DNA from: a virus
Lineage: Duplodnaviria > Caudoviricetes
Length of the DNA: 64,000 bases
Virus record (IMG/VR): IMGVR_UViG_3300025000_000057
Reading direction: 5' to 3' (one strand)
Each line of letters starts with the position of its first letter. The stretch's first letter is position 1. The notes beneath the pieces were generated by a model, which saw nothing but the letters and a program-made list of their open reading frames with translations, was not told the DNA's origin and ran no database searches. Positions 38,758 through 58,251 of this stretch are shown in pieces. The translations under genes and the position numbers were made by a program.

Positions 38758-39303
38758 GTGATTTCGTTGAAACAGGTCTATTTAACCAGGTCTCGTGTCA
38801 GCGCTAATATTCCCCTTAAAGCGACTGGCGTTGCGGTAAGTATAGAAGAGATGAATAAGAAATTCGAGAATGTTAAAGGATTGCCCGTTAAAGACGCTTA
38901 TCAAGTTGGCTGGGGTCAATCCGATTCAGTGGCCCCGTCTGTAGGTACTATATTGGACAAGTTTATTACGCCTGACGGTCACACATGGTTAATATACGAG
39001 GTCGATTTAGAAAAGTTAAGTTACAAAGCTCGTAGAGATATCACAACCCGTAAAGCTGGCGCTTTTGCTGCCTTTGAATACTCAAGTGAAGAAGGCTATA
39101 AAGATGTAATGTATGCTATTATCTATCAAAGAGAACCAGACAGGTATCCCTGGGAGGCGGAAAATACAACCCATGTTTGCCTAACAGGAATCAAAGATGA
39201 TGAATTAGAAATGCTTCGTCAAGTATTCGATCCTCAATCAATGGAATGTATAGCTCTTTACGTAACAAAGCAGAATCAACCTAACGTAGCGATCGTTTCT
39301 TAG
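38758..39303 (+). CDS. Hypothetical protein
   Basis: 181 aa; likely start TTG at 38767 after GAGGTG. Confidence 0.7.
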   Translation: MISLKQVYLTRSRVSANIPLKATGVAVSIEEMNKKFENVKGLPVKDAYQVGWGQSDSVAPSVGTILDKFITPDGHTWLIYEVDLEKLSYKARRDITTRKAGAFAAFEYSSEEGYKDVMYAIIYQREPDRYPWEAENTTHVCLTGIKDDELEMLRQVFDPQSMECIALYVTKQNQPNVAIVS

Positions 39304-39346
39304 TGATACTACACTAAGAAACGATCCTTAAGGAAGTGATACCAAC

Positions 39347-40507
39347 GTGTGTAACAATAACTGGTGGGAAGGTAGTTCTGATGGTCGTAACATACAACCA
39401 GGAATTAGTAGACAGATGCTTATTGATGCTGGTATAGTTTCTGGTCGGAAGAGTTCTGACGGAGGAGACGGTTGCTTTATTGCAACAGAGATATATGGTG
39501 ATTCTCAGGCAAACGAAGTCAATCTGTTACGTCTTTATAGAGATGTAGTTATGCGTAATAGTTTTATAGGTAGACGATTGATTGACTTTTATTATGGGGT
39601 ATCTCCTACATTAGTTAAGTTAATTCGTAAGTTTCCCATTACTAAGAAAGTAATCACACCAATACTTAATACGATCGTTACCTGTGTTAACGAGGAACCA
39701 TCTCTAAGAAATGAAGAGTGCGATATCTCAATCCAGTTCAATACTGGATGTAATCTTGATTGCAAATTGTGCTTCCGGAAGCATGATACAGAAAGGAATA
39801 ATAAACATATCTATCTACAGAACTTCTGGAACTTTATAGATCGCTATAATTTCGAGCACGGCATTGAATGGATTATATGGGAAGGTAGAGGAGAACTATT
39901 CGTAGATTACATGTTTCCTTTTTGCCTGAATAGAATCTGTGAGAGACATCCTAATATTATTCATACAGTAATCACTAATGGCACAATAGATGCTCTAGAT
40001 GAACTTAAGTATCCTGAGAAGGTATACCTTTCTATATCTCTTGATGGCTTAAGAGATGTTCACGAGGATAACAGAGGTATAGGTACATTTAATAAGACGG
40101 TTGCATTTATAAAACACGCCTTAACAATGGGATTTGCCGACGTTACAATTCGTTCTATTGCTACAAAACGTTTTCTTTCTCAGCTACCACAGTTTAGTGA
40201 TTTTGTAAAAGAGTTATCCTCTGATATACATGTTTACGTACAGGAAGTAATACCTCCTTTTGACAAGTCTATGGATATTGAATATCTTTACACATCCAGG
40301 GATAGTATCGAAGTTACATGTACAGGCTTTACTAATATCATCCTTGAAAAGAAACATCACCTGCACAAACAGATTTCATTACATCCAGAGGGCATCTTTA
40401 ATTGCAATAAGCCTACATGTAAGATAGCTGACTATCATCATTGTATACCCGATGTGCTATCTGCTTATAATTTATCTAGGCTTGATTGTAAGAACTGTAA
40501 ATCATAA
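39347..40507 (+). CDS. CFI-box domain fused to radical SAM (SPASM/twitch-like) enzyme
   Basis: GGDGCFIATEIYG...V..LR.YRD....S.IGR..IDFYY.VSP; then CNLDCKLC (CxxxCxxC), GRGE, TNGT, SISLDG...H...RG.GTF; C-terminal ISLHPEG...C...C...CKNC. Confidence 0.8.
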   Translation: MCNNNWWEGSSDGRNIQPGISRQMLIDAGIVSGRKSSDGGDGCFIATEIYGDSQANEVNLLRLYRDVVMRNSFIGRRLIDFYYGVSPTLVKLIRKFPITKKVITPILNTIVTCVNEEPSLRNEECDISIQFNTGCNLDCKLCFRKHDTERNNKHIYLQNFWNFIDRYNFEHGIEWIIWEGRGELFVDYMFPFCLNRICERHPNIIHTVITNGTIDALDELKYPEKVYLSISLDGLRDVHEDNRGIGTFNKTVAFIKHALTMGFADVTIRSIATKRFLSQLPQFSDFVKELSSDIHVYVQEVIPPFDKSMDIEYLYTSRDSIEVTCTGFTNIILEKKHHLHKQISLHPEGIFNCNKPTCKIADYHHCIPDVLSAYNLSRLDCKNCKS

Positions 40508-40704
40508 TGGTGTATAAACCGGAAAGATCTATAATGAATATACAACCGTCTTTGTGCTATGCTATCTACGTTACAGAGGCAGAACGGGATGCTATTGAAG
40601 CAGCCTTATCAATGGGTCTTAAATCGACAGACTCGGATGTAAATGAATTTATGGATAGTCTAATCAGACGAGTGAAATACGCACCACTGGTGGACAAGTT
40701 ATGA
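40507..40704 (+). CDS. Small hypothetical protein
   Basis: Translationally coupled (TAATG) to the radical SAM gene. Confidence 0.55.
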   Translation: MVYKPERSIMNIQPSLCYAIYVTEAERDAIEAALSMGLKSTDSDVNEFMDSLIRRVKYAPLVDKL

Positions 40705-41279
40705 ATAGACAAACTAAATATATGTTACTGTTGAGCGAAGCAATGATATCTTTCACCTTCGCTCTAACAACGCCATTTGTACAATTACATTTTGTTAAGT
40801 TAGTCTCCCAAAATATCTATACCCTCTCTACACTTTTACAAACTACCTTTTGCGCTATACTTCAAACCATATTAAGGACTAAAGAAAACAGAGCGGTCTT
40901 TAGAAAATACTTTGTACTCGTTATGACAATAGATGTAATTCTAATGGTGGTAATAAACTATTACGGTATAAATAATACCAATCTAAGATTCCTTGGGTTT
41001 ACAATTATAAACTCAGTCACAGCAACCATATGGATTACTATTATGACCGAAGCGATAAACAACAACCTCTCATCGGAGAATCTTACAAACTTTCAAGTAT
41101 TAAGACAATCATGTGCCTCCTGGTCTATCGCTGCAGGAGGAGCTTTAGCTGTATTGATAAGCTACCTAAATATCGAATGGATCGTAATAGCTATTGTATT
41201 ACAGTGTGTAGTAAACTTAATCTATGCCATCTGCGATTATACTGTATATAAACGATTAACTACAGAAAATAAGGAGTAA
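40701..41279 (+). CDS. Six-TM membrane protein (half-MFS-like)
   Basis: Six hydrophobic segments with MFS-like spacing; ATGA overlap with the upstream gene. Confidence 0.65.
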   Translation: MNRQTKYMLLLSEAMISFTFALTTPFVQLHFVKLVSQNIYTLSTLLQTTFCAILQTILRTKENRAVFRKYFVLVMTIDVILMVVINYYGINNTNLRFLGFTIINSVTATIWITIMTEAINNNLSSENLTNFQVLRQSCASWSIAAGGALAVLISYLNIEWIVIAIVLQCVVNLIYAICDYTVYKRLTTENKE

Positions 41280-50532: not shown

Positions 50533-50814
50533 ATGAAAGACTTATACTGGCTATGCCTATGTGGTACTTGCTTATATTATACCTGTGTTTTATCACGCAA
50601 TATGGGCAATGTGAGTGATATACCTTGCGAGGATTGCCTAACTTATAAAGATAATAGTAGGTATCATGAATTTAAGAAACCTATACCATGGCATAAGTGT
50701 ATAACATGTAAGAATCTTTCAGAGTTTATTAATCATTCTGGCAATTGTTATACATGTATAAAAGCCTATATGAATTCAGATACACTGGTTTATTATAAAG
50801 GAGGTATACTATGA
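50533..50814 (+). CDS. 9-Cys paralog P7
   Basis: CGTCLYYTC...PCEDC...YHEFKKPIPWHKCITC...CYTC. Confidence 0.8.
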   Translation: MKDLYWLCLCGTCLYYTCVLSRNMGNVSDIPCEDCLTYKDNSRYHEFKKPIPWHKCITCKNLSEFINHSGNCYTCIKAYMNSDTLVYYKGGIL

Positions 50815-51605
50815 AGAGTTTACCATGGGTTGATTTCACACGTCGTAACGATCCGGCGCATCCATTCGGGCCCGTACTGCTGCAAAAGAGTCTTGATAGG
50901 TACGGTGCATATGTTTTCTGTTTCTGGACTAAGAATCCTGGTACTGTTGCTGATTTATATCGTAATCAGATAAGTCAAATGATGTCCAAAGATACACTCG
51001 TACTGGCGCAGGTGACACTTAATAATTATTCCAGTATAATGGAGCCGGGTGTTCCGAGTTTTAATACACGCTATCAAGGATTGGATAGATTACTTCGCCT
51101 AATTGGAGGGCCTGGGCATATTAAGCTCAGAATCGATCCTATTATCTTAGGTTATACTACTCCTAACATGATCCGCACCTCCCTAGAGGCTGGACGTAGT
51201 TTGGGTATACGCAGGTTTGTTATGAACTTCTTAGTACCTAGCTATAAAGGCGTAGGTAATATACTTATTCATAGAGGTTTGATACGACCTAATGACCTTA
51301 CTCCATCTCAAGAACGTATCCTTAGTACGGCTCGCTTTGTTTCCGAAGAGGCACAACGAGTAGGAGCTATTCTACAGGTATGTGCCGAAAGTAACTGGAT
51401 TGGTCAACATGTATCTGGCATTCAAATAGCATCATGTTCAGATCCGACTTGGGCTACACAGGTTAGACCCGAGTTAACCGGTATCTTTAAAGCAAATCCA
51501 TCCCGTAAAGACTGTGGTTGTTGTTACTCGGCCGACTGGGGAGTGTATGCTTCACGAGGTGGATATGTTTGCCCAGGAGGTTGTTTATACTGTTACGCTC
51601 AGTAA
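50811..51605 (+). CDS. DUF1848-like (spore-photoproduct-lyase-related, C-terminal CxxxCxxC) protein
   Basis: TRRNDP...FWTKNP...T.NNY...EPGVP...RIDPI...CAE...SC...R..CGC..S.D.G.Y...CPGGCLYCYA. Confidence 0.7.
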   Translation: MKSLPWVDFTRRNDPAHPFGPVLLQKSLDRYGAYVFCFWTKNPGTVADLYRNQISQMMSKDTLVLAQVTLNNYSSIMEPGVPSFNTRYQGLDRLLRLIGGPGHIKLRIDPIILGYTTPNMIRTSLEAGRSLGIRRFVMNFLVPSYKGVGNILIHRGLIRPNDLTPSQERILSTARFVSEEAQRVGAILQVCAESNWIGQHVSGIQIASCSDPTWATQVRPELTGIFKANPSRKDCGCCYSADWGVYASRGGYVCPGGCLYCYAQ

Positions 51606-51682: not shown

Positions 51683-51994
51683 ATGGCTAATAATACTGCC
51701 ATGGATAAAACAATTGCCGTACTAACTGCGCTTCGGGCTGGTCAGGAAGTTCTTATTGGTGACTACATTTTCGTTTATGATGAAGAAGATGATAAAATTG
51801 GTATTCTAGTTGATGTACATGATGCATCTAAGGGTGAGGATTATCAAGCAATACACTTCTTAGCTGACAACTTTAGTATCCAATGGCTGATGAATGCCTG
51901 TAATAAGATGTCTAATGGAGATCTCCTTATATTGACAGCAACAAAGGTACTTACTTCACTGAATAAGAGGAGGGATACCAAATGCGCGAAGTAA
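51683..51994 (+). CDS. Hypothetical protein
   Basis: AAAGGAGG RBS, 103 aa. Confidence 0.75.
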   Translation: MANNTAMDKTIAVLTALRAGQEVLIGDYIFVYDEEDDKIGILVDVHDASKGEDYQAIHFLADNFSIQWLMNACNKMSNGDLLILTATKVLTSLNKRRDTKCAK

Positions 51995-53655
51995 CCGGTG
52001 ATATATTTGAAATTGGTCGTTACGGTATTATCTGTGTTACCACTAATGGCGTCGTTAAGAAGGACGGCGCCTTGGTTATGGGTAAGGGAGTTGCTCTTAA
52101 CTTTGCTAATAAGTTTCCCACTATGGCGGAAAAACTTGGTCAACTAGTTAAAGCAAACGGTAACCATGTATACAGTCTCGGTTCGTTAGTACCAATAGAC
52201 GATCCGAGTATAAGTTATACTGTTGTTAGCTTCCCCACTAAGGCACATTGGCGCGACAACTCTACTGTTGCACTGGTTACTAAATCGGCTGCTGAGTTAA
52301 AAGCACTTGCTGATTCCCAAGCTTGGCCCGGGCCTATATACCTACCGGTTCCCGGATGTGGTAATGGAGGTCTTAACTGGGGAGAATTGAAACAGTTATT
52401 GCCATCTTATCTTGATGATAGATTTGTAATTGTTCACTATAGTAACTCTGTGCAACAAAATACACAACCCGCTGCTCAGCCGGGTACCCAAGTAACTACT
52501 CAGACTACCACTCTTGAATGTAGCTCTCAAGGAGATAATCGGTTCAGCGCATTTGGCGCACATGTAAATGCGCTTGGCAATAAGATAGAGATGCTCTATC
52601 AAGAGGCTAAACGTTTTACCGATGACCCAAATGAGGGCCCGACCGATTGGAGAAATGCCAAGGGCCGGCCGGTAGTGGCCGTAAGTCTTAATGGTAAGAG
52701 GTTTGGGCCTGAATATCTTACACCGTGGTACTGGTATCTTTGGACTCGGTATTTCCTTGAGAATCCAGATTTATTACAATACGCTCGTCAATTTAATACT
52801 TTTACGGATATGTTCCGTGGTAAGAGTACGAACTGCCAGGCAGATGTAATTGCATTCATGGCTAAGAATGGCCTTAATCCAATAATGGCTAAACCAGCAT
52901 ATCAAGAGATTGATCAATTATTCAATCTTAATTACTTATTTAAGAATCCTACACCGGAGCCGGGTGCTACTCCTGTATATATGTTAAATAGAACTATCAA
53001 AGAGGGATGTAGTGATATTCTCACATGTATGGTTACCGGTCACCGCCCGAATGGTATTAATGGGAAAGCCGGCTGGAACTTTGGAGATTCTCGTAATCAA
53101 AAGTTAATCACATACTTATCCACAGTTGTTAATAAGATGGCTATGGAGAATGGTACCCGGATATTCATAGAGGGAATAGCAGCTGGCGGAGATTTGTTAT
53201 TTACCAGAGCTGTACTTGATGTGAGTCATTTGCATCCGGAGTATAACCTGCAGCTTTGGAACTACATCCCGTATCCATGTGCGCCGGATAGACTTAAGTA
53301 TCAATGGAAAGCAGTTCTTGATAGCGCATTAAACCATCCAGGTGAGACAGTAATATGTAGTCCTGACCCTGTTGGTAAAGATGATAAAGAGCAGCGCATT
53401 GATGCAGCTAAGAAACTCTTCTATCGTAATGAGTGTATGGTGCGTACGTTACCCGTTCTTCCGAATGTCGGTATGATTATTGCCATATATTCAGGTTTAC
53501 AACCCGGGTTATATGCTATCGAGCAAATCGCTCAGCTAATGGATCCAAAGACCAAGGGTGGTACAGCTAATACACTCTTGACAGCTGTTAAGAGATGGAA
53601 AGAGGATAAGAACTTTCAACCTAAGATTCTCGTTGTCAATCCTAACAACTTCTAA
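51982..53655 (+). CDS. Macrodomain - NADAR-like - SLOG(YspA-like) triple fusion
   Basis: GDIF...CVTTNG.....LVMG.GVAL...FPTK.HW...PGCGNGGLNW (macro); LECSS.GD.RFSAF...IE..YQ.AK.F...DWR.AKG (NADAR-like); VTGHRP...GIAAGGDLLF...F.RNECMV...Y.G...GGTANT (SLOG). Confidence 0.7.
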   Translation: MREVTGDIFEIGRYGIICVTTNGVVKKDGALVMGKGVALNFANKFPTMAEKLGQLVKANGNHVYSLGSLVPIDDPSISYTVVSFPTKAHWRDNSTVALVTKSAAELKALADSQAWPGPIYLPVPGCGNGGLNWGELKQLLPSYLDDRFVIVHYSNSVQQNTQPAAQPGTQVTTQTTTLECSSQGDNRFSAFGAHVNALGNKIEMLYQEAKRFTDDPNEGPTDWRNAKGRPVVAVSLNGKRFGPEYLTPWYWYLWTRYFLENPDLLQYARQFNTFTDMFRGKSTNCQADVIAFMAKNGLNPIMAKPAYQEIDQLFNLNYLFKNPTPEPGATPVYMLNRTIKEGCSDILTCMVTGHRPNGINGKAGWNFGDSRNQKLITYLSTVVNKMAMENGTRIFIEGIAAGGDLLFTRAVLDVSHLHPEYNLQLWNYIPYPCAPDRLKYQWKAVLDSALNHPGETVICSPDPVGKDDKEQRIDAAKKLFYRNECMVRTLPVLPNVGMIIAIYSGLQPGLYAIEQIAQLMDPKTKGGTANTLLTAVKRWKEDKNFQPKILVVNPNNF

Positions 53656-57420: not shown

Positions 57421-58251
57421 ATGGCTAAGGAAGCTAACTTGAATAACGTTACGCAACAGATTATTGATGCACTTAAAGTTCACGGATTTAAGATACAGTA
57501 TTATAAGAGTTACTCTACTAATAGCTTTTATCTAAAGTTAGATTATGGAGTATCTCATAGTATAAGGATAAGTGACCATAAAGGGAAGAGTCATCTTAAC
57601 TATCGTTTTAATATCGGGCCTCATATCACCGATTACGAAGTTCGTAAGACACCTCCACCGGATTACTGGCCAATGTACTTCTATCCAATAACACAGTTTA
57701 AGCGCATGATTCAGCAGATAGTTCAGGTACGGGATAATGTAATAAAGAAATACGGGAAGGAAAGGTATAAAACTCTTATGCAGACAAATCTAGAGAAGAA
57801 CCAGCATAAGAGAGGCTTTTGGGCTCAGAGTAAAGAACTATGGGAGGGAGATATCATGACCGGTAAGGGTAAATTCATTACATGTCATATGAGTCAGCTA
57901 TCAAGAATTGATGCTGATATTAAAATTGCTGGTACTATTAAACAGATTAACAGTTCCGATATTCTATGGATTCCGCAGCTAGGCCCGGATGAAGAGTTAT
58001 TTAACATGTTTAAGGATTGGAAAGAGGCTGGTAAGTGGCCCGAAATGTGGCCTGAATATCTAGTTCGCTTTCAAAAGTTAATGACCGGCCCGGTTATGCT
58101 GCCGTATTTAAACCGGTTAAAGCTAAGGCTAAGCGAGGGTAAGAAGATTGCTTTTGGTTGTTTTTGCGCTAAGAAAGATGTTCTGTTCTGCCATCGCAGT
58201 ATAGTAGCTGACGATATGAAAAATAGTGGCTTTGAAATTATATTAGGCTAG
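57421..58251 (+). CDS. Two-domain protein with C-terminal DUF488-like domain
   Basis: N-terminal YLKLDYG...SIRISDH.G; C-terminal W.PQLGP..ELF..FK.W...W.EY..RF...L...L...GCFC......CHRSIVA. Confidence 0.65.
   Translation: MAKEANLNNVTQQIIDALKVHGFKIQYYKSYSTNSFYLKLDYGVSHSIRISDHKGKSHLNYRFNIGPHITDYEVRKTPPPDYWPMYFYPITQFKRMIQQIVQVRDNVIKKYGKERYKTLMQTNLEKNQHKRGFWAQSKELWEGDIMTGKGKFITCHMSQLSRIDADIKIAGTIKQINSSDILWIPQLGPDEELFNMFKDWKEAGKWPEMWPEYLVRFQKLMTGPVMLPYLNRLKLRLSEGKKIAFGCFCAKKDVLFCHRSIVADDMKNSGFEIILG

Follow-up and report, generated by a model that had tools for sequence, protein, structure and literature searches.

In a 64,000-nucleotide stretch of a virus of the Caudoviricetes (IMG/VR record IMGVR_UViG_3300025000_000057; this whole stretch is called the window below), a single plus-strand gene encodes a 386-amino-acid (aa) protein in which a CFI-box domain is joined ahead of a radical S-adenosylmethionine (SAM) enzyme. 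The joining of the two is a genuine, rare and conserved domain architecture. We tentatively read the protein (probability roughly 0.45) as a phage accessory radical SAM enzyme which carries the CFI-box as a folded docking or localization module and acts on some other substrate. The small phage clade that holds this fusion is, among the matches listed by our searches, the only place where a CFI-box is found on an enzyme of recognizable mechanism, and the fusion protein is the simplest experimental handle on CFI-box function and on the invariant cysteine of that family. It also brings an unnamed radical SAM family into the accessory gene set of jumbo phages, here of a probable Bacillota host.

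Architecture and distribution of the fusion

Both domains lie in one open reading frame (ORF), just as a sequence-only reading of this DNA had described them: the coordinates of the frame proved exact, both family profiles score above their cut-offs and the motifs of the enzyme can be read directly (Table 1). The start codon is a GTG about 10 nt 3' of an AGGAAG ribosome-binding site. The NCBIfam model NF041770 (CFI_box_CTERM) matches residues 43-110 over profile positions 1-68 of 69, with 66.4 bits against a curated cut-off of 40 (E 1.5e-18), and the Pfam model PF04055 (Radical_SAM) matches residues 130-269 with 43.4 bits against a cut-off of 29.5; the radical SAM family phrog_1802 is matched as well, at E 6.8e-16. 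An AlphaFold2 model of the 386-aa protein, based on an alignment of 95 sequences, has a mean predicted local distance difference test score (pLDDT) of 86.1 and a predicted template modeling score (pTM) of 0.72.

Table 1. Features of the fusion gene and of the two genes behind it, in window coordinates
Feature	Position (nt)	Strand	Basis or remark
CFI-box/radical SAM fusion gene, 386 aa	39347..40507, stop included	+	ORF list; AlphaFold2 model
N-terminal tail, residues 1-42	39347..39472	+	disordered, low complexity, variable length, Cys2
CFI-box domain, residues 43-115	39473..39691	+	NF041770; four predicted helices
Radical SAM core, residues 127-300, partial TIM barrel	39725..40246	+	PF04055, motifs, structural alignment
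CxxxCxxC	39749-39772	+	CNLDCKLC, residues 135-142
GRGE	39884-39895	+	residues 180-183
TNGT	39974-39985	+	residues 210-213
SISLDG	40031-40048	+	residues 229-234
C-terminal domain, probably twitch-like, residues 340-386	40364..40504	+	beta-hairpin and helix, Cys353/381/384
65-aa ORF	40507..40704	+	TAATG overlap with the enzyme stop; probably outside the system
192-aa membrane protein, 5-6 hydrophobic segments	40701..41279	+	ATGA overlap with the 65-aa ORF

The fusion is no assembly artifact, because four further clusters from independent metagenomes share the uninterrupted architecture, with neither a stop nor a linker between the domains; the fusion called from one sequence is thereby confirmed in its relatives. 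We built a profile from three fusion proteins and ran it over 1.84 billion representative proteins; among the 150 matches listed, P0002, P0004 and P0005 matched over the full length of the profile, while P0003 was found by a word-based search. With the window protein this makes five clusters, 35-69% identical to it (P0003 47%), all located on phage-like metagenome contigs. The CFI-box scores above its cut-off in every fusion tested (76.2 bits in P0004, 70.5 bits in P0005), and P0003 keeps the invariant residues of the box. After the fusions the ranking continues with P0006 (309 aa, full box absent), about 45 stand-alone enzymes of 250-310 aa and more than 90 proteins that have a CFI-box only. 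Among the 150 matches listed there was no other radical SAM family fused to a CFI-box; a weaker combination could rank lower. A word-based search with the CFI region of the window protein returned only the protein itself and P0002.

A tree built from the enzyme parts unites the five fusions (94/81 support, given as ultrafast bootstrap / Shimodaira-Hasegawa-like approximate likelihood ratio test, in %), and P0006 is their sister (100/97). In P0006 the second half of the box survives as a weak remnant, SYFNDSPSFIDRI (YF..SP..IDRI, where the family has YYxxSPxIAxxI), together with the last helix; its CFIAT-LRxYRD half is gone, and its CxxxCxxC, TNGT, SLDG and C-terminal Cys motifs are intact. Farther out lies a stand-alone family of about 290 aa (P0007-P0050), 21-27% identical to the enzyme part at E 1e-36 to about 1e-19 and found in mixed cellular and phage-like contexts. 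It has CNLxCKxC, GxGE, TNGT, S(I/L)DG, NRGxG and the terminal C...CxxC in common with the fusions, whereas its members lack both the CFI-box and the Cys-tipped tail and carry a CC doublet in their hairpin. The CFI-box was probably gained once, in the ancestor of the small phage-borne clade.

Two side observations concern the stand-alone enzymes. An ORF with a Cys-rich motif, CKNAKNCHIGC, and a GGNG motif starts 25 nt 3' of P0007 (L109, 988-1497) and is truncated at the contig edge; it may be a second radical-SAM-like enzyme. On both listed contigs of P0013 a 47-aa gene is called 124 nt 3' of the radical SAM gene, and it could be a peptide partner.

The CFI-box and its family

The box of the window protein opens with the CFIAT motif at residues 43-47 and has all of the family-invariant residues. 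These were taken from an alignment of 60 CFI-box sequences (A2), in which C, D, G, Y, Y and P are invariant and I, A, T, Y, G, L, R, R, L, S and L nearly so. The Cys of C-[FY]-[IV]-A-T and the LRxxRD, G, YY and SP positions are kept in all five fusions. In the model the box consists of four helices (44-50, 56-67, 73-95 and 97-115), the first of them capped by Cys43, and the box modeled by itself gives the identical four helices at pLDDT 85.6. On these models the CFI-box is predicted to be an autonomously folding four-helix domain, not an extended peptide. Foldseek found no solved structure resembling this fold (best E-value 5), and the AlphaFold DB matches are other CFI-boxes that end S8 peptidases, beta-helix, WYL, zinc-ribbon and other proteins. 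Our literature search found no paper on the CFI-box family. The core C[YF]IATAVYG has 460 confirmed matches in 185,579 species genomes (one genome per species), in hosts that range from Clostridia and Bacteroidales through to aerobic Actinobacteria and Flavobacteria; the genome scan used a 12-sequence subset of CFI-boxes, the 60-sequence alignment being too diverse.

That the CFI-box normally sits at the C-terminus was borne out, since in nearly all of the more than 90 CFI-box-only proteins listed the box starts 72-95 residues from the end. The window box shares with these free members of NF041770 the full-length profile, the invariant residues and the predicted four-helix fold, but it is atypically placed, near the N-terminus (residues 43-115 of 386) with a 270-residue enzyme behind it. 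A hydrophobic segment is absent before the box in 82 of the 90 closest CFI-box proteins, and within or after the box in 85 of them; many of the 90 begin with a zinc ribbon, and most CFI-box proteins have no signal peptide or membrane segment. A Pfam scan of the N-terminal parts of CFI-box proteins brought up zinc ribbons, Sel1, TPR, LRR and HEAT repeats, GIY-YIG and HNH domains, and no radical SAM domain. Elsewhere the CFI-box comes after a low-complexity linker, and the domains that carry it are unrelated to one another, S8 peptidases and beta-helix proteins included. This is the behavior of a soluble, promiscuous end-module, and the pattern fits targeting, assembly or tagging.

As a side observation, Clostridioides phage pCD1602_4 (CP069348.1, a record without annotation) encodes at L009 4176-5231 a protein of 351 aa that has a zinc ribbon and TPR-like helices and ends in a CFI-box of the CYIAT type, and the same architecture is found again on the IMG/VR contigs L112-L115. 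Just 3' of the CFI-box gene in L009 stand two ORFs, one ATPase-like and the other with a VEGxTD motif; judged by eye, they look like a two-gene defense pair.

The radical SAM core and its C-terminal domain

The cluster motif CNLDCKLC is invariant among the relatives. At its C-terminal end the window protein has cysteines at 353, 358, 366, 381 and 384; in an alignment (A1) of the window protein with P0002 and P0003, the two fusions nearest to it, Cys353, Cys381 and Cys384 are invariant and a fourth Cys shifts position, P0004-P0006 having been read as well. A SPASM-like C-terminus with cysteines for an auxiliary cluster had been expected from the sequence. The cysteines are present, but the SPASM model PF13186 has no match at E <= 0.1 in the window protein and the seven-Cys pattern is absent. 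Because that match is missing and only three cysteines are invariant, the Cys pattern and the modeled fold (strands within 343-361, helix 367-376) argue for a twitch-like domain of the one-cluster type, not a full SPASM domain. NF033640 (N_Twi_rSAM) scores the window protein and its relatives at 17.6-48 bits against a cut-off of 170.

The enzyme does belong, as had been proposed, in the SPASM/twitch neighborhood of radical SAM enzymes, on its NCBIfam matches and on structural alignment. Among the NCBIfam models the best scores, 20-64 bits where the cut-offs are 170-650, go to NirJ1, a tungsten-cofactor maturase and several maturases of sactipeptides and ranthipeptides, and no NCBIfam equivalog family comes near its cut-off for the enzyme or the tested relatives. 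A sequence search of solved structures gave NifB and SkfB only, both weak. The window protein was not among the matches listed for the viperin model NF038283 (cut-off 180 bits), the relatives score 29-37 bits with it, and the PADLOC model pVip matches weakly, at 19 bits. In structural alignment the Z scores are 20.5 for anSME, 20.1 for viperin, 20.0 for SuiB, 19.7 for MoaA and 19.5 for SkfB and BlsE. The anSME alignment has a root mean square deviation of 3.1 Å over 252 residues and reaches residue 385, as do those of SuiB and MoaA; no aligned structure covers the CFI-box part of the model.

With anSME, SuiB, SkfB, CteB and PqqE the modeled enzyme shares the barrel followed by a Cys-bearing beta-hairpin and a helix. 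It differs from them in having about 15% identity, a best NCBIfam hit of 45 bits, about four C-terminal cysteines where SPASM has seven, and a helical CFI-box in the place taken by a PqqD-type recognition domain in peptide-modifying SPASM/twitch enzymes. With viperin it shares a non-catalytic N-terminal extension ahead of the core, but viperin lacks the auxiliary-cluster cysteines, and the viperin and pVip models score the window family at 19-38 bits. Viperin, MoaA and BlsE (Z 19.5-20.1) tie with the peptide enzymes within one Z unit, and because of this tie the predicted fold cannot separate a protein substrate from a nucleotide substrate.

An alternative is that the enzyme modifies nucleotides or DNA, in the way of MoaA, viperin, BlsE or thymidine hypermodification, with the CFI-box as an accessory only. 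Apart from the structural tie and the weak pVip matches, this idea draws on the neighbors of the relatives: N6/N4 DNA methyltransferase genes adjoin P0003 and P0004, PAPS-reductase-type, HD and Dam genes adjoin P0006, and a dCTP deaminase/dUTPase gene stands directly 5' of P0008. Taken together, these neighbors tilt slightly towards nucleic-acid metabolism. However, all models of nucleotide enzymes score far under their cut-offs, DNA-metabolism genes are abundant in phage early regions so that adjacency says little, no neighbor is common to the loci, and the window enzyme has no such gene beside it. Clustering with cofactor or DNA-modification enzymes had been named in advance as a result that would count against a peptide-modifying enzyme; the relatives do adjoin such genes and the fold does tie with viperin and MoaA, which comes near to that result without amounting to it. 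We regard the nucleotide or DNA idea as improbable. It concerns the substrate only and overlaps with the docking-module reading.

The N-terminal tail and possible modification in cis

The residues ahead of the box had been taken for a 40-aa leader. As such they do not hold up: in the relatives of the clade the tail is 9-41 residues long, and besides the start Met the only positions kept clade-wide are a Cys at 2-4 and a few residues just ahead of the box. Residues 1-22 and 31-40 have a pLDDT below 50. A Cys is present at positions 2-4 in all six clade members (Cys2, nt 39350-39352, in the window), including P0006, where the Cys-bearing half of the box is lost, and is absent from the stand-alone relatives whose N-termini were read (P0007-P0014, P0016, P0020 and P0021). 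The flexible, Cys-tipped tail would be a better candidate than the folded box for reaching the active site.

These cysteines bring up an explanation in which the enzyme modifies its own N-terminal region, for example by a thioether or cross-link at Cys43 or Cys2, to give a self-matured protein or, after cleavage, a peptide product. Cys43 is invariant, the Cys at 2-4 is conserved within an otherwise unconserved, disordered tail, and in structure the enzyme is as near to SkfB, CteB, SuiB and anSME, which form thioethers or cross-links, as to any other. The sub-threshold NCBIfam matches include sactipeptide and ranthipeptide maturases and QhpD, an enzyme that cross-links a protein of about 80 aa, and borosins are a precedent for an enzyme fused to its own substrate. 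Nevertheless the box is predicted as a folded four-helix domain (pLDDT 85-96), P0006 lacks its Cys-bearing half and has an intact enzyme, and no CFI-box gene was found near the stand-alone relatives at the loci with DNA. A protease or exporter was likewise not found, the tail is not conserved in a leader-like manner, and a one-to-one fusion of enzyme and substrate would give a single turnover. On balance we consider self-modification of the N-terminal region rather unlikely, and the more specific claim, that the radical SAM domain modifies the invariant box Cys or the tail-tip Cys of the same protein, an outside chance. If self-modification were true, it would give the invariant Cys of the large CFI-box family its first chemical function, and would be a case from a bacterial virus of an enzyme fused to its own substrate.

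The wider proposal of a phage mini-RiPP (ribosomally synthesized and post-translationally modified peptide) system fares no better. In addition to the unconserved leader, no PqqD-type recognition element (PF05402) was found in the window enzyme, with a method that did detect one in a true enzyme made of a RiPP recognition element, radical SAM core and SPASM domain (locus L093, below). Neither a protease nor a transporter was found as a conserved neighbor, and the genes downstream differ in each relative and do not travel with the enzyme.

The docking-module reading

The role of the box and the chemistry we infer as follows. In radical SAM enzymes the CxxxCxxC cluster cleaves SAM reductively and the resulting 5'-deoxyadenosyl radical takes hydrogen from the substrate. 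The window protein would be a phage accessory enzyme of this kind, its family being an unnamed one of the twitch type with a single auxiliary cluster; its cluster at residues 135-142 would cleave SAM, and the substrate from which the radical takes hydrogen would sit between the barrel and the Cys-bearing C-terminal domain. The CFI-box stands directly ahead of barrel strand 1, which is the site both of the recognition domain in peptide-modifying SPASM/twitch enzymes and of the localization helix in viperin. It may bring the enzyme to a partner or site, the box itself not being modified. The box is probably not the substrate because it is a (predicted) folded domain, the enzyme family exists without it, P0006 has lost the Cys half with the enzyme intact, and a maturation apparatus is absent. 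A docking or localization module is suggested because the box is a promiscuous end-module elsewhere and there is no synteny around the fusions.

Several points weigh against this. The case for a docking module comes from the architecture. The five fusions keep all invariants of the box, Cys included, which a chemical role would fit equally well, and the Cys at 2-4 that the clade keeps in its disordered tail is a hint of chemistry in cis. Moreover, no docking partner was found, and neither the window nor the 20 loci of fusions and stand-alone relatives hold a CFI-box ORF beyond the fusion itself. Should the box prove to serve docking only, the finding would amount to a new domain architecture of modest interest.

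CFI-box genes beside radical SAM genes

From the fusion it had been generalized that CFI-box domains are radical SAM targets throughout, in which case CFI-box genes would be found adjacent to radical SAM genes genome-wide. We surveyed 91 CFI-box loci, made up of the 80 best genomic loci (1.23 Mb), searched with a profile of the window enzyme family and relatives, and 11 viral contigs, searched within 8 kb. No SPASM/twitch-type radical SAM gene was found within the flanks examined in 85 of the 91 (74 of the 80 genomic and all 11 viral loci). Radical SAM genes occur in the remaining six genomic loci and are adjacent to the CFI-box gene in two only, L093 and L064. Four genomes with CFI-box proteins hold only distant matches to the enzyme family (best E 1.6e-16), and against these genomes no enrichment of radical SAM genes near CFI-box genes is visible, the matches being few and the E-values differently scaled. 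Neither the adjacency nor the generalization is upheld by these numbers; the tightest case is explained by a peptide of its own, and the hosts of CFI-boxes include aerobes. The survey is still compatible with one unlinked processing enzyme per genome.

The tightest case is L093, from a Clostridiaceae metagenome-assembled genome. Its enzyme (1443-2774) combines a PqqD-type recognition element, a radical SAM core and a SPASM domain, and directly 3' of it a 41-aa ORF with two cysteines is found (2780-2905). This ORF, not the upstream Sel1-repeat CFI-box protein, is likely to be the substrate of the L093 enzyme, and we rejected the locus as evidence for a CFI-box/radical SAM linkage since the enzyme has its own Cys-containing peptide. 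The couple looks like an unnamed small RiPP pair. No relatives of the L093 enzyme were found in 399 genomes of its class at E <= 1e-30.

The survey also bears on a role in trans, in which the CFI-box of the fusion would pair with CFI-boxes of host or phage proteins and deliver these as substrates. CFI-box proteins are frequent among the Bacillota, to which the host probably belongs, and present in a Clostridioides phage-plasmid, and the box of the fusion occupies the position of a recognition domain. Against this, radical SAM genes are not enriched beside CFI-box genes (6/80 and 0/11 loci, with the L093 peptide accounting for the tightest case), and the four CFI-box genomes hold nothing closer than the distant matches mentioned. 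We therefore hold delivery in trans to be very doubtful; if it were true, the generalization of CFI-boxes as targets would be right in another way.

Neighboring genes

The two genes that follow the enzyme had been seen as coupled to it. The overlapping junctions are real and can be read directly, TAATG between the enzyme and the 65-aa ORF and ATGA between this ORF and the 192-aa membrane gene, but neither gene travels with the enzyme in the relatives. Such overlaps are ordinary in tightly packed phage genomes. The 65-aa ORF has no family match in Pfam, NCBIfam or PHROG, and a homolog is absent beside every enzyme relative examined. By eye it is ribbon-helix-helix-like (strand-helix-helix, CYAIYVTE / AERDAIEAAL / VNEFMDSLIRR), a resemblance that no profile matched, and an internal ATG at 40534 behind GGAAAG looks a likelier start than 40507.

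The 192-aa membrane protein had been described as half-MFS and exporter-like (MFS, major facilitator superfamily), which its matches do not bear out. It has none in NCBIfam, PHROG or PADLOC, and Pfam at E <= 10 gives only two chance-level rows, neither MFS nor any other family being matched. It has three homologs, at 57-62% identity. One of them, P0155 on L111 (59% identical to the window protein and from the same sample as P0002), has three small ORFs 5' of it and no radical SAM gene at that locus, so the membrane gene is unlinked to the enzyme there. In our view it is by chance of gene order that the 65-aa ORF and the membrane gene lie beside the enzyme.

The fusion relatives come from metagenomes of groundwater and similar samples, where their loci are on contigs that are short, AT-rich and phage-like. 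Next 3' of the enzyme, P0002 has a gene for a soluble protein of 121 aa, P0003 one for a soluble protein of 217 aa, and P0004 one for a protein of 79 aa. Among 22 flanking proteins of the relatives' loci, the L111 membrane protein alone has a homolog in the 64-kb window. No neighbor gene common to the fusion loci was found, and synteny is absent.

The phage and the position of the gene

Minus-strand genes occupy 0.4-35 kb of the window and include those for terminase large subunit, portal, tail sheath and an endolysin-type amidase; gene orientation flips to the plus strand at about 35.4 kb, and on this plus-strand arm four sizeable genes precede the fusion gene. The tail sheath has 37% identity with its counterpart in Bacillus phage 0305phi8-36 (219 kb) and 33% with the one in a Moorella phage, and the 386-aa protein is also recorded on a 220-kb contig. 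Because of these tail-sheath relatives and the 220-kb contig, the window is part of a jumbo myovirus, the host of which is probably of the Bacillota. Known phage records gave no DNA match to the window; at the protein level the CFI-box part alone matches them, in one Clostridioides phage-plasmid. Viral contigs scanned with the fusion profile gave no relative, and those scanned for the stand-alone enzyme family gave matches of only 25-28% identity, which were not used. A scan for promoters and terminators found sites no more numerous than in shuffled sequence.

A perfect 15-bp stem with a 6-nt loop is found at 39291-39327, with a predicted folding energy (dG) of -23 kcal/mol and a z of -4.8 against shuffles. 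It overlaps the 3' end of the upstream gene and stops 4 nt short of the ribosome-binding region of the enzyme gene. It is not a classical terminator, because there is no U-tract 3' of the stem, and it may be an element of RNA processing, stability or regulation. Farther down the same arm are genes for a DUF1848 protein (50811-51605, 94 bits), a phosphatase-like protein with a NADAR domain (51982-53655) and a DUF488 protein (57421-58251). The NADAR domain is of the DarT1-antitoxin type and may serve anti-defense.

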